Positions 1,001 through 59,533 of a DNA stretch of 64,000 nt are shown one piece after another (positions within the stretch are counted from its first letter, which is position 1; every line of letters begins with the position of its first letter). Source of the stretch: Candidatus Uhrbacteria bacterium. GTDB taxonomy: Bacteria > Patescibacteriota > Patescibacteriia > JACPHY01. The notes under the pieces were generated by a model. It searched no databases, was not told the DNA's origin, and worked only from the letters and a program-made list of their open reading frames with translations. The stretch spans positions 38,125 through 102,124 of the forward strand of contig JACPHY010000001.1 in assembly GCA_016188355.1 (NCBI GenBank), written 5' to 3'. Both the position numbers and the translations under genes were made by a program.

Positions 1001-1029
1001 GTCAGCGATATGCGAGCATAGAGGCGCAA

Positions 1030-1063
1030 TCCCTGGCGCGAAAGCGATTTTTGCAGAGGTCTC
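1030..1063 (+). repeat. Partial copy (right-hand ~34 bp including the terminal inverted repeat) of the MITE-like element family seen full-length at 12677-12838 and 59370-59531.
   Basis: tccctggcgcgaaagcgatttttgcagaggtctc matches the right end of the 162-bp element. Ends 1 nt before ATG 1065. Confidence 0.6.
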
Positions 1064-9233: not shown

Positions 9234-9268
9234 TTTGGTGTGGTCGCACGAAGGTGATGACATCGTAC

Positions 9269-9296
9269 GCACCCGCCCTCCATGGAGGGCGGGTGC
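9269..9296. terminator. Perfect 12-bp-stem palindromic hairpin (gcacccgccctc/catg/gagggcgggtgc) between convergent pyrG and rpmA. Putative bidirectional terminator (no U-tract).
   Basis: Self-complementary sequence read directly. Sits between two convergent gene ends. Confidence 0.5.
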
Positions 9297-9321
9297 GTGA
9301 TGCTGGAGTAACGGAGTCCGC

Positions 9322-9615: not shown

Positions 9616-9834
9616 ACTATTGCGTGCGCGTCCTCCCGCTGCCGATCGGCGTTCGGGAATGTCTGGGGCCGGCGGGGGTGGAATTTGCCGGCGGTACCGC
9701 GCTCAATTGCGATGAGGGTATTGCATCATGGGATGGGATAACCGTCAAGTCATGCGGGGGACGGCGTACCCAAACACGTGACCATTGTGGTACGCTCTCC
9801 TCTGAGGTGCGTTGTCGCACCTGTTTCTGTATTA

Positions 9835-10005
9835 GACCTGTTGCCCAATAGGTTTCGTCGCGAAATCTGCAGCGTTCGAATGGGAGGGATCCCTCGGCAG
9901 TCCTCGGGATAAACTCCAGAAGAGCAGGGCTCTTTTGAGTATTTTTTTGAAGCGTTGCAGCCGAACGCTGCAGATTGCAGCAGAAAACCTATTGGGCAAC
10001 AGGTC
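9835..10005. repeat. 171-bp imperfect palindrome: 44-nt arms (21 + 14 perfectly paired, 9-nt internal bubble) around a ~83-nt loop. MITE-like or large regulatory stem-loop in the divergent rpmA / membrane-protein intergenic region.
   Basis: Left arm gacctgttgcccaataggtttcgtcgcgaaatctgcagcgttcg. Right arm cgaacgctgcagattgcagcagaaaacctattgggcaacaggtc. Confidence 0.6.
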
Positions 10006-10018
10006 TATTGGTGATCAT

Positions 10019-11526: not shown

Positions 11527-12675
11527 ATGCGTACGTGGAAATTGATGGAAGGGGAGCGGCAATTCATGATTGCGCTTGGGGTATTGGTGGTGCTGGGATT
11601 GTTGTTTCTCTCCTCGGCGAGTGCGCCGCTCGCGTATGAGCGGTTCGGCAATCGTTCCACATATGTGCTCCATCAGTTGACCTCCGGGATCCTCCCGGGC
11701 ATTGCGGCGTTTTTCTGCATGCGGAAGGTGCGCACCTCGTTTTTGCAGCGCGCGGCCATTCCGTTGCTCGTGGGGAGTGTAGCGTTGCTGGTGCTCATTT
11801 TCGTTCCGGGCCTCGGAGAAGCGCACCAGCGGACGCGGAGCTGGCTGTCGCTGGGTCCGCTAACGTTCCAGCCGGCAGAAATAGCAAAACTAGGACTCAT
11901 TCTGGCGCTCGCGGCATGGGCGACCGTGCGTCGGCCGGAATGGTTCGTCCTCACGTCTTGGTGGCGCGGGTTGGTGCCGTTTCTCCTCGTGTTCGGCACC
12001 GTGGCGGGTCTGGTTGCTGTGCAGCCTGACGTGGGTACCATGTCGATTCTCACCGCGATCGCGATCGGTATGGCGATTGCCTCCGGCCTGCGTTGGATGC
12101 ACCTTGGTGCATTGGTGGTTGGCGTGGTGGGGGTGATCGGAGCCCTCATCGCCGCGGCACCCTATCGGCTCGCGCGGCTGACCGTGTTTCTCCATCCCGA
12201 ACTCGATCCGCGCGGGATTGGGTATCAGGTGAATCAGGCGCTTTTGGGAATTGGATCTGGCGGAGTGTTCGGGGTGGGTTTGGGGCATTCTCGTCAGAAG
12301 TTCTCGTTCCTCCCTGAGGTGATTTCGGATTCCATTTTTGCGATTATTGCCGAGGAAATAGGATTTTTGGGGTCGTTGGCTTTTATCGCGGTGTTGGTTT
12401 GGGTGATTGCACTGGTGCTGCGCAGGGCCATGACGGCGACCGATGCATTTGAGCGTCTCGTGCTCGTCGGGATCGCAGCCTGGTGGGGATCGCAGTCAAT
12501 CGTGAATATCGGGGCGATTATTGGACTGCTCCCGCTGACCGGTTTACCGTTGCCTTTCGTGAGCTATGGGGGGACGTCCATGGTCGTGGCACTGGCTGCA
12601 GCGGGGATTGTGGCACAGGTATATGCACGCGACCGCGCCGGAGAGCGGGTGCGGGGATCATGGCGGAGGAATTAA
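11527..12675 (+). CDS. ftsW: SEDS-family peptidoglycan glycosyltransferase FtsW/RodA
   Basis: 10 TM pattern. Conserved PEVISDSIFAIIAEEIGFLG and LPLPFVSYGGTS motifs. Confidence 0.85.
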   Translation: MRTWKLMEGERQFMIALGVLVVLGLLFLSSASAPLAYERFGNRSTYVLHQLTSGILPGIAAFFCMRKVRTSFLQRAAIPLLVGSVALLVLIFVPGLGEAHQRTRSWLSLGPLTFQPAEIAKLGLILALAAWATVRRPEWFVLTSWWRGLVPFLLVFGTVAGLVAVQPDVGTMSILTAIAIGMAIASGLRWMHLGALVVGVVGVIGALIAAAPYRLARLTVFLHPELDPRGIGYQVNQALLGIGSGGVFGVGLGHSRQKFSFLPEVISDSIFAIIAEEIGFLGSLAFIAVLVWVIALVLRRAMTATDAFERLVLVGIAAWWGSQSIVNIGAIIGLLPLTGLPLPFVSYGGTSMVVALAAAGIVAQVYARDRAGERVRGSWRRN

Positions 12676-12676
12676 C

Positions 12677-12838
12677 GAGACCTCTGCAAACATCCCGATT
12701 CGCTCCAGGAACGCGCTGCTCGGCTGCGCTGCGTTCCTCGACCGTTCACGAGATCCGCTGGATATCGCTCGGGTCTGCGTCGCGCAGCTCGCTCGAGCAC
12801 CACGTCCCTGGCGCGAAAGCGATTATTGTGGAGGTCTC
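12677..12838 (+). mobile_element. Full-length 162-bp MITE-like repeat element with ~38-bp terminal inverted repeats (gagacctctgcaaa...tttgtggaggtctc). Fills the ftsW-murG intergenic space exactly: starts 2 nt after the ftsW stop and ends 6 nt before the murG ATG.
   Basis: ~93% identical to 59370-59531. Shorter or partial copies at 44884-44945 and 1030-1063. Arms are reverse-complementary. Confidence 0.75.
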
Positions 12839-12844
12839 TCGGAT

Positions 12845-13951
12845 ATGCACGTCTTGTTCGTGGGCGGAGGCACATTGGGTTCCGTTACTCCACTCCTTGC
12901 GATTGTGGAGGAGTTGCGCGACCGTGTGCACGGGGTGCGGTGTTCGTGGTGGGGCACACGATTGGGGCCGGAGCGCGCAGTTATTGCCGCCGCAGGAATA
13001 CCATTTCGTGCAATTCCATCCGGAAAGTTTCGTCGATATTGGGATCTGCAGCAGATGATAGACCCATTCCGCATCCTCGCCGCGGGCGTGGTCGCCCTGG
13101 CGCGGTTGTCGCGTGATCGCCCCGATGTGGTGGTGGGAGCTGGCGCATTTGTGCAGGTGCCGGTGATGTGGGCGGCGCGGCTCCTCCGTATTCCGGTCAT
13201 GATCCACCAACAGGACGTACGGCCTGGACTGGCGAATAAACTCGTGGCGCCCATCGCACAGATCATCACGGGAGTGTTCCCCGCACATGTGGTTGCGTTT
13301 GGGGCGCGGCCGGTGCGTATCGTGGGGAATCCCGTGCGTCGTGCAATGCGCTCCATGAGTTCGATTTCGTCTGGACAAGCCAAGCAGCTGTTGGGATTCC
13401 CACCGCATTTGCCGCTCGTGCTGGTACTGGGTGGAGGAACGGGAGCGCAGGCGCTCAATGTGCTGGCTCACGCTGCACATGGTGTATGGAAGCAGGCGAG
13501 CTTCCTTGTGGTGACTGGGCGCGGGAAGCGTGTGGTGGATCCACCGACGCCTCCACTGGGCAGTAGTAGTTCTGGGGGCGTCGTGACGTATCGGGAAGAA
13601 GAATTCCTCGACGCCGAAACGCTGGTGCTTGCCTATACGGCAGCGGATGTCGTGGTGAGTCGCGCAGGCATGGGAACGGTCACGGAATTGGGCGTGCTGG
13701 GAAAGGTGATGGTGCTCGTGCCGATGCCGGGCACGCATCAAGAGGATAACGCGGCAGCGATTGGGATGCGGCAGGCGGCGGTCGTGTGGAAGCAGCAGGA
13801 GATCACACCGGAGGAGTTCGCGCGTCAAATTCGGGCACTGCTCGCTGATCCGTCGCGAGGTGTTGCATTAGCGGCATCGGCGCAGGCACTGTTTCCTGCG
13901 CATGCCGCGACGCGGAGCACGGAGTTGTTGCTTACGTTGGTGTCGGAATGA
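12845..13951 (+). CDS. murG: Undecaprenyldiphospho-muramoylpentapeptide beta-N-acetylglucosaminyltransferase (the ORF track extends upstream to 12566 across the repeat; real start MHVLFVGGG at 12845)
   Basis: MHVLFVGGGTLGSVTPLLAI... GT28 N- and C-domains. Position after ftsW. Confidence 0.88.
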   Translation: MHVLFVGGGTLGSVTPLLAIVEELRDRVHGVRCSWWGTRLGPERAVIAAAGIPFRAIPSGKFRRYWDLQQMIDPFRILAAGVVALARLSRDRPDVVVGAGAFVQVPVMWAARLLRIPVMIHQQDVRPGLANKLVAPIAQIITGVFPAHVVAFGARPVRIVGNPVRRAMRSMSSISSGQAKQLLGFPPHLPLVLVLGGGTGAQALNVLAHAAHGVWKQASFLVVTGRGKRVVDPPTPPLGSSSSGGVVTYREEEFLDAETLVLAYTAADVVVSRAGMGTVTELGVLGKVMVLVPMPGTHQEDNAAAIGMRQAAVVWKQQEITPEEFARQIRALLADPSRGVALAASAQALFPAHAATRSTELLLTLVSE

Positions 13952-13965
13952 GTGCATCAGCAGTA

Positions 13966-14005
13966 CATCCAAACCCCGCACCGTGCTCGGTGCGGGGTTT
14001 GGATG
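13966..14005. terminator. 17-bp-stem perfect hairpin (catccaaaccccgcaccg/tgct/cggtgcggggtttggatg) between convergent murG and the small minus-strand gene
   Basis: Direct sequence complementarity. Convergent gene ends. Confidence 0.55.
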
Positions 14006-14016
14006 TGGAGTGCCGT

Positions 14017-14385
14017 TCAGTTCTGATTCGCTGGAGGCGGTTCGATGTTACTGGTGTCGGGAACAACGTCTGCGCTCGCCGTTGTTCGGCAGGAGGCGGT
14101 CAGGGTAGTTTCGAGGTTTTCGAGGCGCGCATGCAGCTGCTGGATTTCGGCGAAAATTTGAGCGCGCGATGGCTCTGCGGGGCGAGACTGTGGGGTGAGC
14201 GCAATTCCTGCCCATACATCACCGCCCGCCGCAAAACTCAGCGCGATCGACGCGGAGAGTCCCGCGACCAGCAACGCGAGAGTGGATGGTGCCTCTCCGG
14301 CGGGCTTCGCGGCGGTGATCAGTGGTGCGGGAGGAGTCGCAGTACGGGCAGTGCGTCGGTTCCGTTTCGTGACGAGTTGGTCCAT
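14017..14385 (-). CDS. Small hypothetical membrane protein (basic N-terminus, one TM helix, C-terminal coiled-coil)
   Basis: 122-aa ORF with TM LALLVAGLSASIALSFAAGG and heptad-like AQIFAEIQQLHARLENLETTL. The overlapping plus-frame ORF translates to W/C/R-rich implausible sequence. Confidence 0.4.
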   Translation of the reverse strand: MDQLVTKRNRRTARTATPPAPLITAAKPAGEAPSTLALLVAGLSASIALSFAAGGDVWAGIALTPQSRPAEPSRAQIFAEIQQLHARLENLETTLTASCRTTASADVVPDTSNIEPPPANQN

Positions 14386-14590
14386 AAAGGGCGATTACCG
14401 TGAATCAATATGCAATCGTCGTATAAAATTTACCGCGGCGCCGCTATGGACTTCGTCCGAACCCGAGCGCAGCGACCGGAGTATGTGGGGAAGAAGGGCT
14501 TTGCCCGACCCCGCATACGGAGGGAGCAAGTGACTTGGTTGGAGGGAAGGGGGCACGGGAGGGAAACCGGGAGGTTTCCCCACGATCTTT

Positions 14591-14686: not shown

Positions 14687-15364
14687 TTATGGGAGCGCGA
14701 TGGGCATAGTGGTGGTATTTCCTGCACGATCGGTGACATGGAGCTCCGGTGTGATCTCGGGGTCGGTGAGACGTTCGATCGCAATGGAGTGGTGCATGCG
14801 GAACGGCGCGTCGGTCGTGTTTTGGCGATTGCCCGCAATGTCCACCCAGGCATTTGCGGGTTCATTGGTGGAGAAGGTAACGCGGTAATTGTTCGGGGTG
14901 ATGGATGCAGAGGTGAAGGAGAGTACAGTGGGAGCGGTGCGATCAACGCCGGGGAGCGTGAATGGGCAATTACCCGATTGTACGGTTGCTCCGGTATCCG
15001 ATCGTGTGGAGGAAACGCGGAAATGGTAGGTGGTTCCCGGAGTGAGCATGTCCACCACGACGCGATGATCAGTCCCCGGAGTTGCGGGAACGACTCGACC
15101 GTATTGGGAATCAATGCCCAGCATGACGTGATTGACATCCGATGCAAGCGAGGTCGTCCACGAGATTGCCGCTTTGCCGCCCGTTGCAACAACGTGCGCG
15201 CACGGATGATCCGTGAGCGCGAGCGTCCGCATTGATTCAGTGGTGCTCGTTGCGGCGAGCGTGGCGAGCGCGGCGGTGGTACCGCTCGTTGCTGCGACGA
15301 GCGCAACGACCCATGTAGCAATACGAATGCGTGGAGGCGAATCCAATTCGTCAAGTGTTGCCAT
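14687..15364 (-). CDS. Membrane-anchored protein with fibronectin type III-like domain (the longer ORF to 15835 overlaps the divergent giant gene; likely start ATG 15364)
   Basis: N-terminal TM IATWVVALVAATSG. FN3-like ...AAISWTTSLASDVNHVMLGIDSQYGRVVPATPGTDHRVVVDMLTPGTTYHFRVSS. Confidence 0.5.
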   Translation of the reverse strand: MATLDELDSPPRIRIATWVVALVAATSGTTAALATLAATSTTESMRTLALTDHPCAHVVATGGKAAISWTTSLASDVNHVMLGIDSQYGRVVPATPGTDHRVVVDMLTPGTTYHFRVSSTRSDTGATVQSGNCPFTLPGVDRTAPTVLSFTSASITPNNYRVTFSTNEPANAWVDIAGNRQNTTDAPFRMHHSIAIERLTDPEITPELHVTDRAGNTTTMPIALP

Positions 15365-15524
15365 ACCACGCAGGGAGCATCGATGGGACCATACACATCT
15401 CCGTCCCCACCCCACACCTGGAGCATATCGCGAAATCCACAGCGCGACAAGAACACATGGGGGCGGGTGTGTTCGTGATATACTGCAAGGGCATTGTACG
15501 GAGGTAGACTTTGTTGTTTGGCGT

Positions 15525-18500
15525 ATGTTGCGAACCTCATCGCGCGGAGTAGCCGCGTCGTTCGTCGGCGCGAGTTTTGTGCTTTCCGCGATTTTGATCA
15601 TGGTGCGATTGGATGCTGCATCGCGTTCCTTTGTGGCGTCGTTCGCAACGACGGCTACGCGAGATGCGGTAACGACTGCCGTATGGGATACGGAGGCACG
15701 GGAAATTCGATTGCCGGCATCGGGAGCAGCATGGTCGCCATATGCGGGGCTTGCCGAACAGCGCGTTCGCGCGATTGCGTTTTCCCCAGCATTCGCCAGC
15801 GATCGAACGATGCTCGTCGGTGTGGCCGACGGCATCTATCGATCGACGGATGCGGGGGCGAGCTGGGTGCGGAGCGCAACGACCGCCAATGAAGTAGTAG
15901 ACATCGCTCTTTCCCCGGCATTTACGGGCGATGGCGCTGCATTTGCTATTACGAATGGAGATGGATTGTGGCGCAGTGGCGATGGTGGGGCAACGTGGAC
16001 GAAGGTCGATGCGGATGCGAGCGGGCTTGGCGTTGCATTTTCCCCGGCATTTGCAGCAGATCGCACCGTATTTGTTGCGGCATTCACCAGTATCCGAAAG
16101 AGCACAGATGGAGGCACGTCCTGGTCTCCAGCCAATATCGGCATTGATTCCACCGCGCTCGAGAATGGAGACATCCGTGGGATCGCGGTATCGGGATCAT
16201 ATGCAACCGATGCGACCGTGTATGTGTCCGCGCTCGGCATTGGGGTCTACCGTAGTGTGGATGGAGGTGCGAATTGGTCCCCATCGAATCCAAGCGGTGT
16301 TTCCGTCTCCTACGCGGCAGCGATTGCGACGAATGGGGGCGGGACCGTTGCGGCGGCATTCTTGGATGGCGTGTACGTGAGTACGGATCGTGGATTGGTG
16401 TGGACGAAGCGCGTGGATGGCGACATTTTCGATATTGCTTTTGCCACGGATGGATCGATGCTGGTTGCGTCGGCGACACAGCCGATGCGTGTGTTGGTAG
16501 GAACGGAATCAGCGGCGCCATTGGGGACTGGATGGCCCGGTACGGGTTCGTTTTCGATTGCGGTGGCACCGACCTATCCGGCACCTGGGAGCGTGATTGC
16601 GGGACATGCATCCGGAGCGGCGGTCATTCGGGGAGCATATGCGACGACTGCAGTTGCGGTCTCGTCGGTCGTGGATGATGTGCCTCGGAACATTCTCCGT
16701 GCAACGGTGACGCCGACTGCGGATCAACCGGCAGGGACCAGTGTGAGTTATGAATTGAGTGTTGCGGATGGCGAGCCCGCATGGGAGGGGCCGGTGACGC
16801 CGGGCGAGGTGTGGACGTTCCGGGGTTCCGGTTCCTCGCTTCGGTGGCGCGCTACACTCCAAACGACATCCGATGTCGTGACGCCGGTGCTCCGTGGTCT
16901 CACGATTGCGTATACGTCCGAAGATTCGGTGGCGCCGCCGACGATCGCCTCGGGGACGCCGACCACCACCACGATTCGGTGGTCATGGGGCGACCGTCCT
17001 GCAGATGCGACCGGGTTTGTGGTACATGCGGGGACGCACGGGAGCGCGGACGAGCGGGTGATCGGCACGGTGAACACGCGAGAGGCGGATTATCTCGTGG
17101 AGGAGGGACTGACACCGAATACCGCGTTTTGCGATCGCCACGTGCATACGCGACGCAATGATGAACTTTCTGATCCGTCCGCTGCATTCCCCTGTGTGAC
17201 GACGCTCGTATCGGTGCCGCTCCTCACGGCGGCGGAGCGTACCTCCAATAGTGTGGCGCTCCGTTTTCCTCCGGAAGATGCGCCGGTCACGTACGCCATC
17301 CATGAGCAGATTTCAAATCAATTTGTCGGCGCGGATGGGAAATTGGCGAATGGGGTGGTTTGGCAGAGGGGGGTCGGATGGGGATCGGGAGTAGTTCCCG
17401 TGCTCGGTCTCTCTCCGGACACCTCCTACGCATTTTGTCTGCGGGCGCGGAATCGCGCGGGAGCGATGTCGACGTGTGCAGCACCGGTATCCGTGACGAC
17501 GATCGCTGCAGCGCCGCTCGGCGAGATCGCGGTCGGTGCGGGTACGCGAGCATCCGGTGGACGTGTGCGCATGGAGATTGAAGTGCATTCCGTGGGAGCC
17601 GGTTCGGCCGAAGATGTGGTGGTGCGTATTCCTGTTTCCGAGGGTCTCCGTGTGGTACCTGATGCATTGCGTCTGCAGGGGAATGTGCTCACCGACACCC
17701 GAGATGGAGATGTGGGAGATGTGGATGGAGCCGGCTCCGGAGGCATCACGTTTCGACTGGGCACGTTGTCCAGCGGCGCGACGCGTGTGATGGAGTTGTC
17801 CCTGACGTCGGTATCGCCGGGCGCGGTGACCGCCACTGTGTATCCGATCGTGTCCTATCGACCAGAATCTGGCGCAGATATTCGTACCGCGTCACTCCCT
17901 GCTCCGCTGACGATTTCGATTGCACCGCCCTCGACGGACGTCCCGCCCGTGATGACGCCACCAGGAGAGGCGCCGCCCGTTTCGAATGGCGGTGCACCGG
18001 CAGTGATGAATCCGCCGGCTGTGGGGGGTGGCTGGGGATCGGTCGACGCGGCGGGTACGTTTACCATACTTGCGCCACGAGATGGAACCGCGGTCCCTGT
18101 TGGCCCGCTTTCGGTCACGGGAACTGCAACGCCGGGGAGCGTACTGGTGATTGATGTGGATGATCGCCGGATGGCGACGGTCACCACGGATTCGGAGGGA
18201 CGATTTTCGGGTGCGGTGGGGGACGGACTTCCCCTGGGTGACCACCGCATTGCAGCACAGTTGGGTAACGCGCGTTCAGAATTGCACATTGCGGTGGTTC
18301 CATCGGATGATGCCATTCGTATCACCGCGCCGGTGTCCGGAACGTATATCAATGTCGCTGCAGTAGTGGTTGCGGGAACGGCGCCACCGGGCATTACCCT
18401 CCAACTGACGCAGGATGCGGCGCCATTGGGATCGCTGACGGTGGACGAATCAGGAGCATTTACTTTCCCCATTCCTGCTGCTCCCTCGGAAGGGCCGCAT

Positions 18501-20186
18501 CTCATCACGGCGACTGCGGCATTGTCCTCGGGCATGGTATTGGAATCCTCCACATGGTTCCGGGTGGATCGAACGCCGCCTGCTCCGCCGGCTGTGGATG
18601 AGTTGCGATTGCTCCGTCGGACGCCGGCAGCCGCATCGGATGCTCCCACGGCATTTGCGGTGACTCTAGCGTTACGCGGAACTCTTACGGAGGGAGAATT
18701 CGCAACGCTGGACGCGCTCCTCGTGACCGTGGCATCGGATCCGGTGACCTTCACCTTCACCCCATCCACGCGCAACTGGTCTTACGAGACGACCGTTCCC
18801 CTGGAACCGGGATCGCACAGCGTGCGTGTTGCTGCACGGGATCGCGCGGGCAATGTATCGCCCTTACCGCAGGCGCTCACTTTTGATGTGGCTCCCGCAC
18901 AATGCGGGAATGGTATCGATGACGACGGCGATGGAACGATCGATGCGCCGAATGATCCAGACTGTCGCGATGTCCGAGATGATAAAGAAGCATCAGATGC
19001 GATGTTGGTTCGCGCGGCATCCGCAGTTCGCGATTCCGTGGTGACGACTGCAGTCGTGGTGCAACAGACGACCATCGCGGCCGCAAAATCCACCGCTGAT
19101 ACCGCAGCGGCAGTAGCGGTCCTCGTGCAGGAGCGGGTGCTCGATAACCCGGTCGTGGAGGTGGTTACGGAGCGCGCGGTTGCACCGGTGACCACGGTGG
19201 CGGTCGTGGCCAATGCGGCGACGGCGGTGGAGGGATTCCAGCTCGTGAGCTATCTCCAGTACCTCATCAGCCTCGTACTGCAGCCCGGACGGTTGCTCGC
19301 GCGTCGCAAGCGAAAGGCGTGGGGGACCGTGTACGCAAGTCTCACGAAGCGGCCGGTCGACCTTGCGACGGTGCGCCTCGTGGATACGGTCGCCGGTCGG
19401 GTGGTGCAGACCGCGGTCACCGATCATTTAGGTCGATTCACCTTCCTCGTGCAGCGGCCGGGTACCTATCGATTGGAGATCCAGCATCCAAAATTTGCGT
19501 ACCCTTCCGCGCTCCTTCGGGGACGTCCTACCGATGGCGTATTCGCCGATTGTTATTACGGTGCTCCGATTGTTGTGGATACGCAGGGAGCATTTCTCGC
19601 GATGAACGTGCCCGTGGATGCGTACGAAGAAGAGCAAACGACCAAACGGGTGCTGCGCCGGCACTATCGAGAACTGGCGGGTGCGCTCATCGCCCAGGTG
19701 AGCCTCGTGTCCTCGTTGTTCGTGCTCGCGGTGTCCCCCAGCGTACTAACCGTTGTGCTTGCGCTCGTGAATGGTGGACTCTATTTCCTCTTCCGTCGGC
19801 TTGCACGTCGCCCCCGCCTGCCGCATTCCTGGGGAGCAGTACGTGACGCGGCGAAACGTCACCCTATCGGACGGGCCATCGTGCGATTGTTTGATCAAGA
19901 ATTCAATAAACTACTGGAAACTGCAGTAACCGATCGATACGGGCGCTACCAATTCCTCGTCGGCAAGAACGCGTATTACGTGGCTGCCGAGAAGACAGGG
20001 TATGTCGCGGCGCGGTCGTCGGTGGTGGATCTCACGAAGCAAGAGAGTGTGCTCGGGGTGGATTTCCAGTTGCAGCCGAGCGTTTTGGGTGCTGATGTGT
20101 CATCTGCGGAATTGAATCGTCACGTGTCACCATCCGTGCAGATTGCGTCGACAGGGGATACGTCCCATGGTACGCTCGCTTCATAA
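15525..20186 (+). CDS. Giant (~1550 aa) cell-surface protein. N-terminal signal/TM; multiple BNR/Asp-box (S-x-D-x-G-x-T-W) repeats; Ig/FN3-like domains; two CarboxypepD_reg-like domains separated by TM helices near the C-terminus. ORF open from 15213; ATG 15525 precedes the hydrophobic leader.
   Basis: Repeated STDAGASW, SGDGGATWT, STDGGTSWS, SVDGGANWS, STDRGLVWT. C-terminal GTYRLEIQHPKFAYPS and RYGRYQFLVGKNAYYVAAEKTGY motifs. Hydrophobic segments LVSSLFVLAVSPSVLTVVLALV. Confidence 0.7.
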   Translation: MLRTSSRGVAASFVGASFVLSAILIMVRLDAASRSFVASFATTATRDAVTTAVWDTEAREIRLPASGAAWSPYAGLAEQRVRAIAFSPAFASDRTMLVGVADGIYRSTDAGASWVRSATTANEVVDIALSPAFTGDGAAFAITNGDGLWRSGDGGATWTKVDADASGLGVAFSPAFAADRTVFVAAFTSIRKSTDGGTSWSPANIGIDSTALENGDIRGIAVSGSYATDATVYVSALGIGVYRSVDGGANWSPSNPSGVSVSYAAAIATNGGGTVAAAFLDGVYVSTDRGLVWTKRVDGDIFDIAFATDGSMLVASATQPMRVLVGTESAAPLGTGWPGTGSFSIAVAPTYPAPGSVIAGHASGAAVIRGAYATTAVAVSSVVDDVPRNILRATVTPTADQPAGTSVSYELSVADGEPAWEGPVTPGEVWTFRGSGSSLRWRATLQTTSDVVTPVLRGLTIAYTSEDSVAPPTIASGTPTTTTIRWSWGDRPADATGFVVHAGTHGSADERVIGTVNTREADYLVEEGLTPNTAFCDRHVHTRRNDELSDPSAAFPCVTTLVSVPLLTAAERTSNSVALRFPPEDAPVTYAIHEQISNQFVGADGKLANGVVWQRGVGWGSGVVPVLGLSPDTSYAFCLRARNRAGAMSTCAAPVSVTTIAAAPLGEIAVGAGTRASGGRVRMEIEVHSVGAGSAEDVVVRIPVSEGLRVVPDALRLQGNVLTDTRDGDVGDVDGAGSGGITFRLGTLSSGATRVMELSLTSVSPGAVTATVYPIVSYRPESGADIRTASLPAPLTISIAPPSTDVPPVMTPPGEAPPVSNGGAPAVMNPPAVGGGWGSVDAAGTFTILAPRDGTAVPVGPLSVTGTATPGSVLVIDVDDRRMATVTTDSEGRFSGAVGDGLPLGDHRIAAQLGNARSELHIAVVPSDDAIRITAPVSGTYINVAAVVVAGTAPPGITLQLTQDAAPLGSLTVDESGAFTFPIPAAPSEGPHLITATAALSSGMVLESSTWFRVDRTPPAPPAVDELRLLRRTPAAASDAPTAFAVTLALRGTLTEGEFATLDALLVTVASDPVTFTFTPSTRNWSYETTVPLEPGSHSVRVAARDRAGNVSPLPQALTFDVAPAQCGNGIDDDGDGTIDAPNDPDCRDVRDDKEASDAMLVRAASAVRDSVVTTAVVVQQTTIAAAKSTADTAAAVAVLVQERVLDNPVVEVVTERAVAPVTTVAVVANAATAVEGFQLVSYLQYLISLVLQPGRLLARRKRKAWGTVYASLTKRPVDLATVRLVDTVAGRVVQTAVTDHLGRFTFLVQRPGTYRLEIQHPKFAYPSALLRGRPTDGVFADCYYGAPIVVDTQGAFLAMNVPVDAYEEEQTTKRVLRRHYRELAGALIAQVSLVSSLFVLAVSPSVLTVVLALVNGGLYFLFRRLARRPRLPHSWGAVRDAAKRHPIGRAIVRLFDQEFNKLLETAVTDRYGRYQFLVGKNAYYVAAEKTGYVAARSSVVDLTKQESVLGVDFQLQPSVLGADVSSAELNRHVSPSVQIASTGDTSHGTLAS

Positions 20187-33606: not shown

Positions 33607-34458
33607 ATGGCGGTCACGCGCATCGGTAGTGTCGCATTGCTGGTGCTTGCCATGAGCGCGCCTTCGGTCGCATGGGGACAATCAACATGTTCAGCGGGTC
33701 AGCAATACTGTCCGTCCGGATCCTATGCGGGGACGTGTCAGGTGAATACGAGGTCATGTCCAACAGGATCGGTGAGTGCGACGGTGGATGGGTGTTCTGC
33801 GTGCGCGTGTCCTGGTGGGCAGGTGGTGTGCAGCAATGCGTGTGTTGCGACTCAGGCGGGAAACGCATGTACGACAGCAACCGGTGATTCTGGGACATAC
33901 AACGCCTGCGGTACGTCGTGCACGGCAACTCCTCCGGAATCGGTGATTATCACGCCATCTGCTGCACAGGCCACCATTCCGGCCCGGTCGTCACGTCCTG
34001 GGATTTTTCTCAATCAGACAGGAACCGGATCCATTGTGCAGCTGCAGCAATCCGGGGCGAATGTACTGACCGTGAATGGAACCGGTCTCCAGATCGGTTT
34101 GCAGGACGGAGGTCTGGGTATTGCGCTTGGGGCGGGTGATGCGGGACAAAATCTCTTGTATGGGGTCGTCGATTACGCGGCATCCAATGCGGGGGATGCG
34201 CTGCTACTGCTTCAAACTGCGGCGAATTCGGGAGGTTCGCAAGTACCCACTACGCGTTTTCGTGTGGATCGTGAAGGAAATGTGGCCGCGAGTGGTGGAG
34301 CAACGATCGCCGGCGGCATCACCGCAGGATCGGGAAGCGTCGGCATTATTGATAGCACCGGCAAAATTCCCGAACTCTCCTCGACCTACCTCGCCAATCT
34401 CTCTGGCGCGAATCTCACAAGCTTGAATGCAGCGAATCTCACGGGAGATAGCGGCTGA
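33607..34458 (+). CDS. 5' fragment of a giant secreted repeat protein (signal peptide, Cys-rich N-module), truncated by a 2-bp indel frameshift at ~34448. Likely continuous with 34427-38776.
   Basis: MAVTRIGSVALLVLAMSAPSVAWG signal peptide. The last ~150 nt are 100% identical to 35501-35650 except for the gc indel that creates TGA. Confidence 0.55.
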   Translation: MAVTRIGSVALLVLAMSAPSVAWGQSTCSAGQQYCPSGSYAGTCQVNTRSCPTGSVSATVDGCSACACPGGQVVCSNACVATQAGNACTTATGDSGTYNACGTSCTATPPESVIITPSAAQATIPARSSRPGIFLNQTGTGSIVQLQQSGANVLTVNGTGLQIGLQDGGLGIALGAGDAGQNLLYGVVDYAASNAGDALLLLQTAANSGGSQVPTTRFRVDREGNVAASGGATIAGGITAGSGSVGIIDSTGKIPELSSTYLANLSGANLTSLNAANLTGDSG

Positions 34459-36592
34459 CCAGGCGCTGTTTGGTGTATTGGTGGGATCCGCCGGAAAGTT
34501 CCTCATCGACAATGAGGGAGATGTGGTGGCGGTGGGTAGCGTGAAGGCACCATCGTTCTGTATTGGGGATGACTGCAAATCGTCGTGGGCAGCGGTGGCG
34601 ACTGGCAGTCCAGTGGTACAACTGCAATCGGCGACGCCGGGTACCGCGCAGGATGGCCATCTCAATATATCGGGAACGATTCGTGGAACGCAGCTTTGTC
34701 TCGGTGGAGAATGTAAAACGACGTGGTCGGAAATCGCGGGGACTTCGGTGTCGCTCCAAGGTTCATATCCTGGGACCGCAGATGCGGGCAATTTCCACGT
34801 GAGCGGGTCGGGTCGTGTGGGCACGGATCTCGCGGTGATCGGGACGACGACGCTAGGCGCCGCAGGGGGCAGTTCGACGGTTTTGAACGCGGTGGGATCA
34901 AATTTTTACCTGAACGGTGAAGGAAACATTCAGCTGCGGGTCGGAACTGCAGGAGCGGCTACGACGGAAAAATTTTCTCTCAATAATGGCGCGAATGCTG
35001 AAATTTTCTCCCTCGATGAGACGGGTGCCCTCGACGTTGCCGGCGGAATCGTCGCAGGAACCGGGAACGTTCAAATCGTGAATGCCACGGGAAAGATTAA
35101 CAATATTTCGTCTACGACGTTCGCTAACCTCTCCGGTTCCAACCTTACCACCTTGAACGCCACGCAATTGACCACGGGAACAGTTAATGCCGCGCGATTG
35201 CCGTCCACCATGACGCAGGCAACGACATTCACTGGAGTTCCCACAGGCACTGGGGTGCTGCAAGGATCGCTCATAGCGAATCCGGCATCTGCGACCGCGA
35301 ACTATGCATTACTTGGCGTGGCCGCCGCGGGTGATGTGGCCGCCGCCGGGCGATTGTGCATTGGATCAGACTGTCGCAGCGCATGGCCTGCCGGCATCCT
35401 GTTGCAGGATTCACTTCCGGGAACTGCACAGACAGGCAATTTCCATATTACCGGTGGGGCGGTGCTCGATGGTGCATTGAGCTCCGCAACGCTCAACGTG
35501 GCCGGCGGCATCACCGCAGGATCGGGAAGCGTCGGCATTATTGATAGCACCGGCAAAATTCCCGAACTCTCCTCGACCTACCTCGCCAATCTCTCTGGCG
35601 CGAATCTCACAAGCTTGAATGCAGCGAATCTCACGGGAGATGCAGCGGCTGACCAGGCGCTGTTTGGTGTATTGGTGGGATCCGCCGGAAAGTTCCTCAT
35701 CGACAATGAGGGAGATGTGGTGGCGGTGGGTAGCGTGAAGGCACCATCGTTGTGCATGGGGGATGATTGCAAGTCCCGTTGGTCGGACGTGACTGCGGGT
35801 ACGGTACTTCTGAGTAGTACTCGTCCTGGCTCGCAGCAGGATGGCCATATCAACATTACGGGTGATGTACGATCGGGAGCATTGATCACGACGGAGTACA
35901 TTGCATCGCTCGGTCCGATCGGATGGGGTCCGATCGGCGGACCCGCCGGATCGCTACAGTGGAATGAATCTACGGTGCAGATGGGTGCGTATTCCAACAA
36001 TGACGTACACATTATTACGGGAGGCGATCAGCCGCGCGTGCAGATTCAGCATGCGACGGGGAATGTGGGTATTGGTAGTGCCCCCAGCCCCGACTATCGA
36101 CTGAATGTGGGCGGTACTTTAAATGCGACGCGCATCTGTATTAATGGAGACTGTCAGACGGCATGGCCGGCGGGTGGTGCCGTCGGCAACTTTGTGCCGC
36201 TCCGTGCCAGCGCACCGACCACCGCCGACGCCGGCCATTTTTACATATCAGGATCTGGCCGTATTGGGGACGCGCTCCAGGTGGACAGCACCGGCGCAAC
36301 CGCCCTCGACGTTGCCGGAGGTATCGTTGCAGGAACCGGGAACATTCAGATCGTGAATGCCGCGGGAAAGATTCCTGTGTTGAGTGCCACCACTCTCGCC
36401 AATCTCACTGGCTCGAACCTCACCAACTTGAACGCTTCGCAATTGGCTGCTGGAACAGTTAATGCCGCGCGATTGCCGTCCACCATGACGCAGGCAACGA
36501 CATTCACTGGAGTTCCCACAGGCACTGGGGTGCTGCAAGGATCGCTCATAGCGAATCCGGCATCTGCGACCGCGAACTATGCATTACTTGGC
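34309..36592 (+). repeat. Intragenic long direct repeats: ~250 bp 100% identical pair (34309-34560 and 35501-35754, only difference the 2-bp frameshifting indel) and ~136 bp pair (35178-35313 and 36453-36592)
   Basis: Direct sequence comparison. The six-frame track shows duplicated antisense ORFs (34204-34824 vs 35411-35848) as a by-product. Confidence 0.8.
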
Positions 36593-38776
36593 TGTCGCAG
36601 CGCATGGCCTGCCGCAGGTGTCCCGAGCGTGGCATTGTTGGATGCACTACCGGGAACTGCACAAACAGGACATTTTAATATCTCGGGAAGTGGTGTATTC
36701 GGCAATGCGGCGAGCGCGCGCCAGATTATCGCATCGGGAACGGCAGGATTTGGTCGCTTGACCTACAACGAAACCACTGGGAAGGTCCAGCTACAGGATT
36801 CATCGTATGCAAATGATGGCAGCGACGGGCTGACACTCGATGGGAGCAATTTGCATGTGGTGGGCGCGTTGAGTGCTACCAGTCTCGACATCGCCGGCGG
36901 CATCCAGGCAGGATCTGGGAACGTCGCGATTATTGATGGCTCCGGAAAAATTCCTGGAATCTCCTCGACGTATTTTACGAGCCTCTCTGGAGCAAACCTG
37001 ACGGAGCTGAATGCGAGCAACATCTCGACGGGCGCCATTAATATTGCACGTATTCCGAACACGGTGGCTAAGCTAGCATTTCCGGCAAAGTTCACGGGAA
37101 GCGCCAGCGCGGCGTGGGATTACGCCACGCTCGTGGCAAACCCAGCATACGCGGACGAAGATGATGCGCTTATTGCTGCGGGAATGGGTACGAGTGCAAG
37201 CAGTAATGCGGTGTTCCGGGTCGACAAGGAGGGCGACGTGACTGCGGCGAGTAGTCTCTCTGCTCCGATGGTGCAGGGCACGAGGCTCTGTATTAGTGAC
37301 TCCTGTATAGATGGATGGAGTGAAATTCCTGGTGGAGGGGGAGGTGGCGGCGGCAGCTTTGTGCCGCTGCGCGCCAGCGCACCGTCCACCGCCGATACCG
37401 GTCATTTCTACATATCAGGATCTGGCAGAATCGGGAGCACGTTGCAGGTGAACAGCACCGCCGCATCCGCGCTTGACGTTGGTGGCGGCATCAATGCAGG
37501 GACCGGGAACGTCGGAATTATCGACGCATCGGGAAAGATACCCGCCATTTCTTCGACGTATTTCGCGAGCACTGCATTAAATGCGAGCGATCTCTCGAGT
37601 GGTACGGTTGCCGCTGCACGGTTGCCTTCCACGGTGATTCTGGAGGGTGAATCCGGATCCACGCTCACGAATTTGAACGCGAGCAATTTGGCGAGCGGAA
37701 CCGTTTCCGCGGCGCGACTACCCACCTCGATTACGCAGGCTACGACGTTCACTGCGTTGCCGGGTGGAGATACGTGGTCAGGATTTACACCCAGCGTCGC
37801 CATTAATCCAAGATCGGATATTACGAACTCAGGATGGCCGCTCCTTCGCGTGGGGATGAATGATGCGGCCATTTTCACGGTACTTGGATCAGGATCGGTA
37901 TCCGTTTCCGGAGGAATTTTTGCGGGTACGTCATCGGGAACGGGAGTGCAAATCGTCAATGGTTCGGGAAAAATACCCGAAATTTCCTCCACGTATTTCA
38001 GTAGTGTATCTGGAGCCAACCTCACCAACTTGAACGCGGCGAACCTCACCGGCACCATTGATGCGGCTCGATTGCCGACGCTCACGAACTTGAACGCGAG
38101 CAATTTGGCGAGCGGAACCGTTTCCGCGGCGCGACTACCCACCTCGATCACGCAGGCGACAACTTTTGCGGCGACACCGAGCGGTGCCGGTGTGTTGCAG
38201 GGTGCGTTAGCAGTGAATCCGGCGAGCGCAGGGTCGGATCGCATCCTGTTTGGTGTGGCGGTGAATGGTGTATCGAAGCTGAAAGTGGATGCAGAGGGCG
38301 ATGTGGAGGCCGCGAGTAGCCTGAAGGCACCGTCGCTATGTTTGGGGAGCGATTGTCGGACCTCCTGGCCGTCCGGTGGTTCGAGCAATGCGGTGAGTTT
38401 GCAGTCTGGCGGATTGACTGCGCAGACTGGTGGTTTATCGGTAACGGGAGAGGGACGGTTTGGGTCGATATCGGTGGACGATCTTGTGGTGTCAAATTCC
38501 TTCTCCGCGCCGACGATCGAGACTGATGGAGAATTTTTTTGGAAGGGCGGTCCATTGATTTCGGGGACGCGCGAGGTGGTGAATAGCGAACCTAGTACTA
38601 CGGGTTCTGCGATGGCTAGGTGTCAGTCGGGATACCTTTTGACGGGCGGTGGGTGTATGTGTAATGGCCCATTGAAGGCCACATGGCCATCGTCTGATGT
38701 TGCGGAGGCATGGCAATGCGTCGGGACGTGCTCTCGGATCACGGCGTATGCAATTTGCTTGAAGAAGACCCAATAA
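34427..38776 (+). CDS. 3' part (~1440 aa) of the giant secreted repeat protein. Many ~40-aa repeats of G(S/T)GNVxIVNAxGKIPxISSTxFANLSGSNLTxLNAxxLxxGTVNAARLP and recurring xLCIGxDCRxxWP Cys pairs. Real reading frame begins ~34452 after the frameshift.
   Basis: Open frame to 38776. Internal near-identical DNA repeats (34309-34560 = 35501-35754; 35178-35313 = 36453-36592). C-terminal Cys-rich module resembling that of 32537-33562. Confidence 0.6.
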   Translation: MQRISREIAADQALFGVLVGSAGKFLIDNEGDVVAVGSVKAPSFCIGDDCKSSWAAVATGSPVVQLQSATPGTAQDGHLNISGTIRGTQLCLGGECKTTWSEIAGTSVSLQGSYPGTADAGNFHVSGSGRVGTDLAVIGTTTLGAAGGSSTVLNAVGSNFYLNGEGNIQLRVGTAGAATTEKFSLNNGANAEIFSLDETGALDVAGGIVAGTGNVQIVNATGKINNISSTTFANLSGSNLTTLNATQLTTGTVNAARLPSTMTQATTFTGVPTGTGVLQGSLIANPASATANYALLGVAAAGDVAAAGRLCIGSDCRSAWPAGILLQDSLPGTAQTGNFHITGGAVLDGALSSATLNVAGGITAGSGSVGIIDSTGKIPELSSTYLANLSGANLTSLNAANLTGDAAADQALFGVLVGSAGKFLIDNEGDVVAVGSVKAPSLCMGDDCKSRWSDVTAGTVLLSSTRPGSQQDGHINITGDVRSGALITTEYIASLGPIGWGPIGGPAGSLQWNESTVQMGAYSNNDVHIITGGDQPRVQIQHATGNVGIGSAPSPDYRLNVGGTLNATRICINGDCQTAWPAGGAVGNFVPLRASAPTTADAGHFYISGSGRIGDALQVDSTGATALDVAGGIVAGTGNIQIVNAAGKIPVLSATTLANLTGSNLTNLNASQLAAGTVNAARLPSTMTQATTFTGVPTGTGVLQGSLIANPASATANYALLGCRSAWPAAGVPSVALLDALPGTAQTGHFNISGSGVFGNAASARQIIASGTAGFGRLTYNETTGKVQLQDSSYANDGSDGLTLDGSNLHVVGALSATSLDIAGGIQAGSGNVAIIDGSGKIPGISSTYFTSLSGANLTELNASNISTGAINIARIPNTVAKLAFPAKFTGSASAAWDYATLVANPAYADEDDALIAAGMGTSASSNAVFRVDKEGDVTAASSLSAPMVQGTRLCISDSCIDGWSEIPGGGGGGGGSFVPLRASAPSTADTGHFYISGSGRIGSTLQVNSTAASALDVGGGINAGTGNVGIIDASGKIPAISSTYFASTALNASDLSSGTVAAARLPSTVILEGESGSTLTNLNASNLASGTVSAARLPTSITQATTFTALPGGDTWSGFTPSVAINPRSDITNSGWPLLRVGMNDAAIFTVLGSGSVSVSGGIFAGTSSGTGVQIVNGSGKIPEISSTYFSSVSGANLTNLNAANLTGTIDAARLPTLTNLNASNLASGTVSAARLPTSITQATTFAATPSGAGVLQGALAVNPASAGSDRILFGVAVNGVSKLKVDAEGDVEAASSLKAPSLCLGSDCRTSWPSGGSSNAVSLQSGGLTAQTGGLSVTGEGRFGSISVDDLVVSNSFSAPTIETDGEFFWKGGPLISGTREVVNSEPSTTGSAMARCQSGYLLTGGGCMCNGPLKATWPSSDVAEAWQCVGTCSRITAYAICLKKTQ

Positions 38777-44840: not shown

Positions 44841-44883
44841 GTCCGTTGCGGTATACTAGAAATAGCTTTGCGCGTCAGAGAAG

Positions 44884-44945
44884 GAGACCTCTGCGAACAT
44901 TCAGATTCGCGCCAGGAACGCGAAAGCAATTTTTGTAGAGGTCTC
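44884..44945 (+). repeat. Internally deleted 62-bp copy of the MITE-like element (both terminal inverted repeats retained, central ~100 bp missing)
   Basis: gagacctctgcgaacattcagattcgcgccaggaacgcgaaagcaatttttgtagaggtctc matches the two ends of the 162-bp copies. Confidence 0.7.
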
Positions 44946-44971
44946 TAAGGAATTTTGCGGCATCGCATTTT

Positions 44972-51481: not shown

Positions 51482-51521
51482 CCACGTTCCGGGTAGGGGA
51501 ACGGTGTGTTCCGCGCAGTGC

Positions 51522-57577: not shown

Positions 57578-59371
57578 ATGCCGTTGCCGGAAATCAATAC
57601 AACCGTGACCACTTCCGCTCGCCTGTGCGAGCGGAAGTGGCGGTTTGCAGAAGAGGCGCCTCCGGAATTTCTCGCGACGGCACAGGGGATGCCGGCCCCC
57701 CTCGCGCATCTTTGCTATCAGCGCGGATTGCGCACATGGGAATCGGTGCAAGAGTTTCTCCATCCTGACTACGCGACGCATCTCCATGACCCGTGGAGCT
57801 TCCGTCACATGGAGCGTGTGGTGGATCGTATTTGGTTTGCTCGGGAACGCGGGGAGCATATCTTGGTACACGGAGATTATGATGCGGACGGGGTGAGTGG
57901 TGCGGCGATGCTCTCCGAGACGCTCGAGGCGCTGGGATGTACCACGGACGTGTTCATTCCGCATCGCGAGCGTGACGGCTACGGGTTTACCGCTGCCGCG
58001 CTCGCCTATGCTCGGGAACGAGATATCCGCGTGATCGTCACCTGCGATTGCGGGATTGCTAATGCGGCGACGATCGCAACGGCGCAGGAACGTGGCATCG
58101 ACGTGGTGGTGACGGATCATCACTGCATACCTACCGATGCTACCGGTGCAGCGGTACTCCCGCCGGCATACGCCATCCTGCATCCCGGAGTTCCCGGAGA
58201 AACATATCCATTCCCCCATCTCACCGGCGGCGGTGTCGCATTTAAGCTCTGCGTGGCGCTCGTCCAGCGCGACCGCGCATCGGCTGCGCCTCGTCTGCCG
58301 CGCGGGTTTGAAAAATGGCTGCTCGATTGCGTCGCGATTGCTACGGTGGCGGATCTCGGAGTGCTGATGGGTGAAAATCGAGTACTCGTGCGATATGGAC
58401 TGACCGTGCTCGAGAAAACGCGGCGTCCCGGTCTGCGCGCGCTCTACGATCTCGCGCGCATCACGCCGGAGCGCATCACGCCAACGACCATTGGCTTCCA
58501 GATCGCACCGCGCATGAATGCGGCGGGACGTCTCGCCCATGCGCGTACCGCGTGGGAGCTGTTGCGCGCGACGGAGGCACCGCATGCGCGTGTGTTGGCG
58601 GAGCAGTTGGAGACGTGGAATACGGAGCGCCAACGGCTGGTGGAAGATGCGGCGCGGGAAGCCATTGCGCAGGTCGGTGATCGCGGCGCGCGTCGATCGG
58701 TGGTGGCGGTGGGTGCGGAGTGGTCTCCCGGTATTGTGGGCCTGGTGGCGACGCGTTTGCGGGAACAGTACGCGTGTCCTGCGTTTGCGCTCACCACAGC
58801 GGGGGAGAAGATTGTGGGATCCGGTCGGAGCGTGGAGGGATTTGATATTGTGGAAGCGCTGCGAGCGGCGTCCGATACGCTGGCGGCGTTTGGTGGCCAT
58901 CCGCAAGCATGCGGATTCACGGTCAAGAGCGCAGCGGACATCGCGGTATTCACGGAACGTGTGGATGCATATGCACAACTGCATTGTACGGAAGAGCAGT
59001 TGGTGCCGACGCTGCGGGTAGATCTCGTGCTCGAGTTTGCTGCGCTTTCGTGGGAGTTTGCGGAGCAATTAGCGCAGCTCGGGCCGTTTGGCGTTGGCCA
59101 CCCGGCACCGCTCTTTTGTTTTCGTGCGGTGCGCATCGAGGCGGTTCGGGCGATGGGTGCTTCCGGGCGGCATGCGCGCCTCGGTATGCGCGAGGTACGG
59201 TCCGGCATGGTGCGATCGGTAGTGGTATTCTCGTATATGGATCGTTTCCCGCATCTCGTTCCGGGCATGGTTGTGGATCTTGTGGCTGAAGTGGAGCCGC
59301 GCGAATGGAATGGCCAGCGTGAGGTACAGGTACGCGCCGTGGACATGCGAGTCACGGCAGAACATATATGA
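57578..59371 (+). CDS. recJ: Single-stranded-DNA-specific exonuclease RecJ
   Basis: DHH motifs HGDYDADGVSG, DCGI, TDHH. DHHA1 domain GGHPQACG. OB-fold C-terminus. Confidence 0.88.
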   Translation: MPLPEINTTVTTSARLCERKWRFAEEAPPEFLATAQGMPAPLAHLCYQRGLRTWESVQEFLHPDYATHLHDPWSFRHMERVVDRIWFARERGEHILVHGDYDADGVSGAAMLSETLEALGCTTDVFIPHRERDGYGFTAAALAYARERDIRVIVTCDCGIANAATIATAQERGIDVVVTDHHCIPTDATGAAVLPPAYAILHPGVPGETYPFPHLTGGGVAFKLCVALVQRDRASAAPRLPRGFEKWLLDCVAIATVADLGVLMGENRVLVRYGLTVLEKTRRPGLRALYDLARITPERITPTTIGFQIAPRMNAAGRLAHARTAWELLRATEAPHARVLAEQLETWNTERQRLVEDAAREAIAQVGDRGARRSVVAVGAEWSPGIVGLVATRLREQYACPAFALTTAGEKIVGSGRSVEGFDIVEALRAASDTLAAFGGHPQACGFTVKSAADIAVFTERVDAYAQLHCTEEQLVPTLRVDLVLEFAALSWEFAEQLAQLGPFGVGHPAPLFCFRAVRIEAVRAMGASGRHARLGMREVRSGMVRSVVVFSYMDRFPHLVPGMVVDLVAEVEPREWNGQREVQVRAVDMRVTAEHI

Positions 59372-59531: not shown

Positions 59532-59533
59532 CT

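Follow-up and report, generated by a model that had tools for sequence, protein, structure and literature searches.

Correia elements of Neisseria (CREE/NEMIS) are repeats of ~100-160 bp with long terminal inverted repeats (TIRs), which occur in full and internally deleted size classes, lie next to or between genes, form hairpins and are co-transcribed; they are cut by RNase III, and the ERIC sequences in turn modulate decay by RNase E (PMC10969869; PMC3184786). The enterobacterial ERIC/IRU sequences are imperfect palindromes over their whole length, known in variants with internal deletions or insertions, and ERIC is found in transcribed intergenic regions. Prokaryotic MITEs are small, non-coding, multicopy elements with TIRs and short flanking duplications whose presence or absence varies between genomes, and the REPINs and REP-BIME repeats (RAYT) are extragenic hairpin-forming doublets characterised by selfish spread and structural symmetry. 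The REP2 repeats of Neisseria and the IR repeats of Borrelia are placed directly upstream of open reading frames, the former as cassettes comprising a promoter, a ribosome-binding site (RBS) and an ATG (PMC3184786). Leaving aside transcription, RNA decay and cassette content, these traits recur in the family of repeats analysed here (family 1), where flanking duplications are seen at four of six copies and vary in length. For bacteria of the Candidate Phyla Radiation (CPR), a full-text literature search for MITEs brought up a single paper, which was unrelated, and the group goes unmentioned in a survey of these elements covering 1,700 genera. The literature searched thus contained no account of MITEs from CPR bacteria, and small non-autonomous mobile repeats are hardly described in CPR/Patescibacteria.

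The window, i.e. the whole 64-kb stretch of a Candidatus Uhrbacteria genome that was analysed, has a GC content of ~59%, nearly all of its genes on one strand and spacers of -4 to 12 nt within its operons. The MurG and MurJ proteins that it encodes are 100% identical to those of a Candidatus Uhrbacteria MAG. Our analysis of this stretch and of related loci makes it probable that family 1 represents new, lineage-restricted, non-autonomous MITE-like foldback transposable elements of Candidatus Uhrbacteria.

Copies, insertion sites and distribution of the repeat family

The earlier note on this DNA had described a 162-bp repeat family with four copies, and all four were recovered, the full copies being 94% identical (152 of 162 positions) instead of the ~93% first given. 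Full copy A (12677-12838, plus strand; 182.9 bits) lies between the ftsW stop codon (12673-12675) and the murG ATG (12845), and full copy B (59370-59531, plus strand; 192 bits) between recJ and rnhA, where the recJ stop codon TGA takes its last two bases from the GA at the start of the element. Short copy C (44884-44945, plus strand; 49.3 bits) is made up of the TIRs only, its 62 nt corresponding to element positions 1-39 and 136-162 after an internal deletion joined at a CGCG microhomology. Copy D (1016-1063, plus strand) is truncated or rearranged, with homology secure for 1030-1063, a right-arm match 97% identical to copy B. This last stretch had been taken for a right-half copy, but it belongs to a complete insertion whose left part is rearranged, the insertion being bounded by the 7-nt direct repeat TATGCGA (1009-1015 and 1064-1070), whose right unit holds the ATG (1065) of the rmlA-like gene. 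Pfam searches confirmed the neighbours of the copies, namely GT2 and NTP_transferase, FtsW and MurG, and RecJ and RNase H. As a separate observation, the rmlA-like ORF (1065-2228) and the RmlD ORF (2066-2956) overlap by 163 nt (2066-2228); the Pfam match of RmlD begins at residue 1 and that of the rmlA-like protein ends at about residue 335 of 387. This could be a long overlap in different frames, or else the result of a stop or frameshift that was missed.

Family-1 elements measure 62-162 nt and have no coding capacity; their concatenated six-frame translation gave no protein match among 5.8 billion protein clusters. Seven termini match the 18-nt sequence GAGACCTCTGCAAAAATC with at most three mismatches, for a chance expectation of 0.03, and the TIRs of ~38 bp reported before were found, in imperfect form, in copies A, B and C and in a copy from another genome described below (L034a), the termini being invariant at xAGACCT and GGCCT. 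The sequences GAGACC...GGTCTC at the ends (e.g. 12677-12682 and 12833-12838) are those recognised by BsaI/Eco31I, which are type IIS enzymes, a likeness that is probably coincidental since the copies in L034 carry GGGGCC...GGTCCC instead.

The position of the copies with respect to coding sequences is less regular than had been thought. The gap to the ATG, claimed to be 2-3 nt for every copy, is 1 nt for copy D, 6 nt for copy A and 2 nt for copy B, and copy C is separated on its right by 50 nt from ATG 44996 and by 26 nt from an in-frame TTG, and on its left by 43 nt from the stop of the preceding gene. Similarly, the left end was said to start at or inside the upstream stop codon; this is true of the recJ TGA, which copy B does overlap, but the gap to the ftsW TAA is one base, not two. 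Copy A contains no stop codon in any of the three plus-strand frames, the murG frame being open backwards across the whole of it (12566-13951), and gene callers could wrongly lengthen murG by 93 codons through this copy. Short-read Logan contigs of the window organism start or break inside the element (L001 and L002 inside copy B), as expected of a repeat, and family 1 thus breaks short-read assemblies and could serve as a source of strain markers. One contig of the same genome, SRR12113422_92280 (L029), begins inside copy B and stops ~28 nt past the ligA stop (record end 15200), which suggests another repeat copy there.

Read with a right boundary one base past GGTCTC, direct repeats flank four of the six family-1 copies (B, C, D and the foreign copy L034b). 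Copy B is bordered by TAT on the left (59367-59369) and, after one extra base, on the right (59533-59535), the repeats becoming TATGA/TATGA when the first GA of the element is counted; copy C by AAG/AAG (44881-44883 and 44947-44949), or AAGGA/AAGGA with the element's GA; and L034b by CTA/CTA, or CCTA/CCTA without the one-base offset. The register of the duplications needs the extra base at the right end, and their length is not uniform (3-5 bp; 7 nt in copy D). No flanking direct repeat was seen at copies A and L034a, nor at either copy of a second family (family 2, see below). Removal of copy B and one of its repeats restores GAA CAT ATA TGA with an overlapping ATG AAA CTT, that is, an ATGA stop/start overlap like those present at four other junctions of the window. 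Judged from these repeats, copy B would have entered a recJ|rnhA spacer of zero length, the recJ stop being rebuilt by the left TAT plus the GA of the element and the rnhA start being kept by the right TAT-G. At copy D the duplicated segment would likewise be the one that holds the start codon of the rmlA-like gene, and the duplication leaves a second, upstream ATG opening a 3-codon ORF.

Seen in this way, the overlap of copy B with the recJ TGA and its end 2 nt before an ATG both follow from target duplication at the ATGA overlap of recJ|rnhA. More generally, the exact filling of intergenic gaps, from which a role as a linker had been deduced, is accounted for by the short spacers (-4 to 12 nt) into which the element inserts, together with a duplication that regenerates stop and start, and the linker role is not supported. 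The recJ|rnhA junction illustrates that target duplication can render insertion into an ATGA overlap harmless, with a resulting geometry that is easily mistaken for co-option.

A profile search of all fetched loci retrieved a colinear 162-nt copy (L034a; L034 8049-8210) between the dnaX stop and a tRNA-Gln gene in GCA_043805865.1, a distant Uhrbacteria MAG from which the loci L034 and L035 were taken. This copy is 82.7% identical to copy B over 162 nt, whereas lepA, murJ, recJ, dnaX, murG and ftsW of the same two genomes are 58-62% identical at the nucleotide and 48-66% at the protein level. The dnaX-tRNA junction filled in L034 is empty in the window (51482-51521). Conversely, the ftsW-murG junction, which holds copy A in the window, is devoid of the element in the closest relative, GCA_016206015.1 (L003; MurG 74% identical to that of the window), where the region is syntenic, the spacer measures 24 nt and the murG start is conserved (MHVLFVGGG), and also in another Uhrbacteria MAG, GCA_043813445.1 (L036), where the spacer is 2 nt long. 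A MurJ-based genome scan returned only relatives of at most 42% identity and no close genome. The same MAG that contains L034a carries a chimeric relative (L034b; L034 15360-15490), 17 nt upstream of recJ, in which the family-1 termini GGGGCCTCTGCAAAA...TTTTGCGGAGGTTCC enclose an unrelated palindrome, GTCATTGCGAG...CTCGCAATGAC. Common ends enclosing different interiors, together with the 62-nt copy C, indicate that mobility depends on recognition of the ends.

The family-1 set that we examined hence consists of six copies in two genomes only, four in the 64 kb of the window and two in 29 kb of GCA_043805865.1; none was found in ~90 kb from four other Uhrbacteria MAGs. Exact terminal patterns had no match in GTDB representatives (strict left arm), JGI metagenomes (lenient, both arms) or IMG/VR, negatives that understate the distribution of the family since the patterns required GAGACCTC and the sole foreign copies begin GGGGCCTC. 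No match was obtained either in plasmids, phages or 5,426 complete E. coli genomes (blastn in 'distant' mode for E. coli), and a match of locus L012 to a family-1 terminus was discarded as a chance match in coding sequence.

In other MAGs the same junctions are occupied by other repeats. The recJ-rnhA spacer of GCA_030646955.1 (L033 15497-15765) extends over 269 nt and the ftsW-murG spacer of GCA_043805865.1 (L035 9785-10000) over 216 nt, both being filled by small, unrelated repeats (GTCATT.CGAG / GAGATTTCTC type). These junctions therefore behave as permissive landing sites in several lineages, which speaks once more against family 1 having been co-opted for a particular function. The GTCATT.CGAG / GAGATTTCTC repeats also make up the interior of L034b (L034 15385-15472) and are absent from the window. 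Elsewhere in L035 (4040-5447), the mraY-ftsW interval of the dcw-like cluster of this MAG bears the signature of a diversity-generating retroelement (bAvd accessory protein and RVT_1 reverse transcriptase).

Taken together, empty orthologous sites, reciprocal presence and absence, direct repeats and an identity far above that of host genes show that the family-1 copies are insertions. The comparison of orthologous loci, with empty sites at ftsW-murG in L003 and L036 and at dnaX-tRNA in the window, and the patchy distribution of the repeats thus bear out the mobile, MITE-like multicopy element suggested from the sequence of the window. Furthermore, conservation far above any host gene of a non-coding repeat located at non-orthologous sites implies horizontal spread.

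The hairpin and its possible role in RNA

Folding agrees with the earlier proposal that the whole element can form one long hairpin: both full copies fold as a single hairpin with free energies of -81.7 (A) and -86.4 kcal/mol (B) and z-scores of -6.0 and -7.1, respectively, and copy C reaches -28.7 kcal/mol (z = -5.7). The alignment of A, B and L034a supports a consensus of 62 pairs, ten of which are doubly changed yet paired, six of them beyond the TIRs. Copy B and L034a differ at 28 positions, and nine of nine doubly changed pairs stay paired in this comparison against 0.79 expected (0 of 20,000 trials), a result with which shuffle and slide controls agree. Such compensatory change along the whole length exceeds the need of transposase binding at the termini. 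On the other hand, the minus strand, at -94 to -95 kcal/mol, folds at least as well as the plus strand, at -82 to -87 kcal/mol, and G-U pairs show no asymmetry. As both strands fold equally, the constraint is symmetric and covariation does not demonstrate an RNA function; selection specific to RNA, which we considered as a candidate, is not supported on this ground. A symmetric constraint fits DNA-level palindromy, through cruciform or single-stranded DNA intermediates or arm-to-arm correction, as well as it fits RNA function. Even in the absence of selection, template switching at quasi-palindromes can transfer a change between the two arms.

First among the alternatives to a purely mobile element is that the hairpin is co-transcribed and kept for a role in mRNA, as an RNase III site or stabiliser, as a partial terminator, or as a coupling device in which the stop codon lies at the stem base and the ribosome that terminates there would melt the first 8-12 bp of the stem and free the start region. 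The compensatory upkeep of the stem (10 of the 62 pairs, and all nine between B and L034a) would be expected of such a module, as would the location of stop and start codons at the stem base in A and B, and the Correia and ERIC elements offer known substrates of RNase III and RNase E (PMC10969869). All five orientable copies are oriented like the flanking genes, although this is a weak test in stretches that are almost entirely one-stranded. Against these points stand the equal or better folding of the minus strand with no G-U excess on the transcribed strand, and template switching as a means of keeping the symmetry without selection. In addition, a consensus scanner recognised no canonical terminator or promoter in the full copies; the suggestion of a terminator was therefore not upheld for them, and survives for copy C, where the scanner reported a weak terminator-like stem followed by a T-run. 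Rfam models returned three tRNAs only in the window, with one sub-threshold chance match in a permissive scan and no family for the element. On balance, we regard a role of the hairpin in mRNA as unlikely, if still a contender to be reckoned with.

It is tempting to speculate on a narrower version, in which the hairpin is selected as an operon-junction module with its 5' base at the upstream stop and its 3' base at the downstream start. If true, the terminating ribosome would melt the first 8-12 bp and thereby expose the GAGG and AUG of the opposite arm, so that translational coupling would survive an insertion of 162 nt, or even become obligatory. Such a module would account at once for the enrichment of copies near gene starts (see below), their uniform orientation and the compensatory upkeep of the whole stem. 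It is the start-proximal bias and the upkeep of the stem over its whole length that leave a small chance of a hairpin role at operon junctions; selection of the hairpin as this particular module appears quite unlikely to us.

Perfect palindromes also occur in the window apart from the two families. One of them (13965-14006) has 19-bp arms and a 4-nt loop and is placed just within the ORF 13948-14403; another (9267-9298), with 16-bp arms, is located between pyrG and the L27 gene, has a counterpart in L003 (6810-6845) and looks like a bidirectional terminator.

Gene starts and the Shine-Dalgarno question

The terminal GGAGG/AGAGG of the right arm had been considered the only plausible RBS of the downstream gene. 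We assessed the use of Shine-Dalgarno (SD) sequences at 40 rough gene starts of the window and at the starts of called genes, 15 from L029, which belongs to the window genome, and 17 from the relative L003. An SD core 4-mer is present at -18 to -4 in six of the 37 starts without a preceding element (16%), against 15% of random positions, and SD 5-mers in two of these 37 starts, against a background of 5.6%. The mean energy of the anti-SD duplex is -5.5 kcal/mol at starts and -5.2 kcal/mol in the background, for a canonical anti-SD tail, assumed here as the 16S gene lies outside the window. There is thus no SD enrichment at gene starts in either the window genome or the relative, and with most genes lacking an SD the argument of the only plausible RBS carries no weight. 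In L003 the triplet GGT precedes nine of the 17 called starts, which together with the lack of SD enrichment hints at a non-SD initiation context in the lineage.

These data bear directly on the proposal that family 1 was co-opted as a portable initiation cassette delivering an SD (GGAGG/AGAGG) at the right spacing, a possibility for which the REP2 repeats of Neisseria, carrying promoter, RBS and ATG, set a precedent (PMC3184786). The motif GAGG does precede the ATG, by 5 nt in copy D, 6 nt in copy B and 10 nt in copy A. However, it is the mirror of CCTC at the opposite terminus, and the symmetry of the TIR is sufficient to explain it, as its spacing follows automatically from a duplication that holds the ATG. 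Moreover, GAGG is predicted to be paired within the hairpin stem, the probability of being unpaired for positions -15 to -1 being 0.20 in copy A and 0.07 in copy B when folded with their flanks. The earlier suggestion that the hairpin may occlude the downstream SD is consistent with this prediction, as far as the motif itself is concerned. Family 1 is probably co-transcribed with the flanking genes, and its most likely effect on expression would be the occlusion of the 15 nt before the start, unless the stem is opened by a terminating ribosome from upstream or by an RNase.

Neither copy C nor L034a is at a protein start, L034b is 17 nt away from recJ, and murG of L003 works with a 24-nt spacer containing neither SD nor element. 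What does favour the cassette is the placement of the remaining copies. With the elements removed, intergenic positions at 7 nt or less from a start amount to 6.7%, and three of the four window copies, or three of six overall, are located there. This enrichment (P ~0.001-0.005 against uniform intergenic insertion, in a rough and post hoc model) substantiates the proximity to start codons as commoner than uniform insertion predicts, and the compactness of the genome alone does not fully account for it. The tetranucleotide TATG is contained in two of the four recognisable duplications. The simplest reading, short of proof, is that certain targets are preferred and that purifying selection acts as well in this compact genome. 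A role of the right-arm motif as the RBS of the downstream gene is not supported, and co-option of family 1 as a translation-initiation cassette seems improbable.

Mobility and relation to described elements

A second palindromic element provides a hint as to how family 1 may be mobilised. The family-2 element (9833-10007, plus strand) is 175 nt long, with 46-nt arms TAGACCTGTTGCCC...GGGCAACAGGTCTA that include two compensatory pairs, and folds at -95.7 kcal/mol (z = -11). It lies 11 nt upstream of GTG 10019, which aligns with the start codon in L003, and is absent from the orthologous L003 spacer. Its termini (TAGACCTGTTGC) are similar to the family-1 termini (GAGACCTCTGC), with AGACCT invariant in 11 of 11 arms. 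A foreign family-2 copy, 77% identical, was located on the JGI contig Ga0114944_1041958 (L032 1439-1599); it scores 70.9 bits with the family-1 covariance model and is followed, 6 nt downstream of its end, by the ATG of an ORF of 328 aa (L032 1438..455, minus strand). The product of this ORF is a distant IS256-like DDE transposase as judged by NCBIfam (E = 8e-10, 38 bits, below the cutoff), with no Pfam match. No second terminus was found beyond the ORF, and tblastn of the protein against plasmids gave no match that would tie a parent IS family to the termini; by its sequence, this putative transposase is a lead and not an identification. A match of L031 to the family-2 terminus proved to be a chance match in coding sequence. 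Immediately upstream of the window element, the intergenic block 9700-9832 is conserved in L003 (7190-7319), ahead of a 145-aa gene and the mraY cluster, between adjacent spacers that are not conserved; it could be the promoter or leader of the dcw operon.

No transposase was detected in the window by Pfam scans of 38 ORFs, which represent most of the larger candidates and matched housekeeping or uncharacterised proteins only; outside these scans were a 1657-aa and a 1449-aa ORF and pyrG, mraY, murA, CtpB, L9 and PBP, named after the L003 gene table. Likewise, neither the window nor the examined loci contain an autonomous partner with family-1 termini. As to the two long ORFs, the 1449-aa one (34427-38776) is occupied by long internal direct repeats (34300-38400; units of 141-204 nt, 60-100% identity, some identical) and may encode a repeat-rich surface protein, and the nearby 1657-aa one (15213-20186) resembles a 1529-aa Big_13/SdrD-like protein of L003.

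Under the MITE-like reading that we favour, a transposase supplied in trans, presumably of the DDE type, would probably recognise the terminal ~15-18 bp, G(A/G)G(A/G)CCTCTGCAAAA, and insert the element with a short target duplication of 3 bp, or 5 bp counting the terminal GA. In a compact genome with spacers of -4 to 12 nt, surviving insertions would be those sitting at gene junctions, and the GAGG near the end of the element would be nothing other than the terminus of an inverted repeat.

A different route of mobility would be that of REP/REPIN-like repeats, with a single-stranded DNA hairpin moved by a Y1 enzyme (RAYT or IS200/IS605-type) in place of a TIR-type MITE. The extragenic location, a hairpin spanning the whole length and symmetric on both strands, and the two of six family-1 copies and both family-2 copies that have no flanking duplications would all suit this mechanism. 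It is hard to reconcile with the direct repeats at four copies and with termini common to variants with differing interiors, as end recognition predicts. Furthermore, the GTAG head is not conserved, being present in B and C and missing in A, D and the L034 copies, and no RAYT-like gene was seen among the window proteins scanned. These are also the points in which family 1 departs from the REPINs, and we rate this mechanism as highly improbable. Finally, an ordinary conserved 5'-UTR or intergenic regulatory leader, which the position inside operons and directly upstream of genes might evoke, is already refuted and next to impossible, as the same sequence precedes unrelated genes and follows dnaX, and the orthologous spacers of relatives are empty (24 nt in L003, 2 nt in L036).

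As MITE-like elements, the family-1 repeats would mean that even tightly packed CPR genomes of ~1 Mb carry active selfish repeats, as far as their sequences allow us to judge. Their landing sites lie within essential operons, the dcw cluster and recJ-rnhA among them.

Family 1 can be set apart from each of the described systems. The REP2 repeats have no TIRs and bring their own ATG, which in family 1 belongs to the host and lies in the target duplication. Compared with prokaryotic MITEs in general, the interior of family 1 is itself palindromic and kept so by compensatory changes, and neither the window nor the examined loci yielded a parent IS. The ERIC/IRU sequences occur in another host phylum and have different termini, and the 162-nt element has no match in the 5,426 complete E. 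coli genomes. With the Correia elements there is no sequence similarity, the termini of family 1 differing from the Correia TIR; in addition, the flanking repeats are other than TA, no outward promoter was detected and the host belongs to the CPR. By sequence, family 1 is a member of neither the Correia/NEMIS nor the ERIC group, and it is nonetheless to these two that it is closest in its working and looks.
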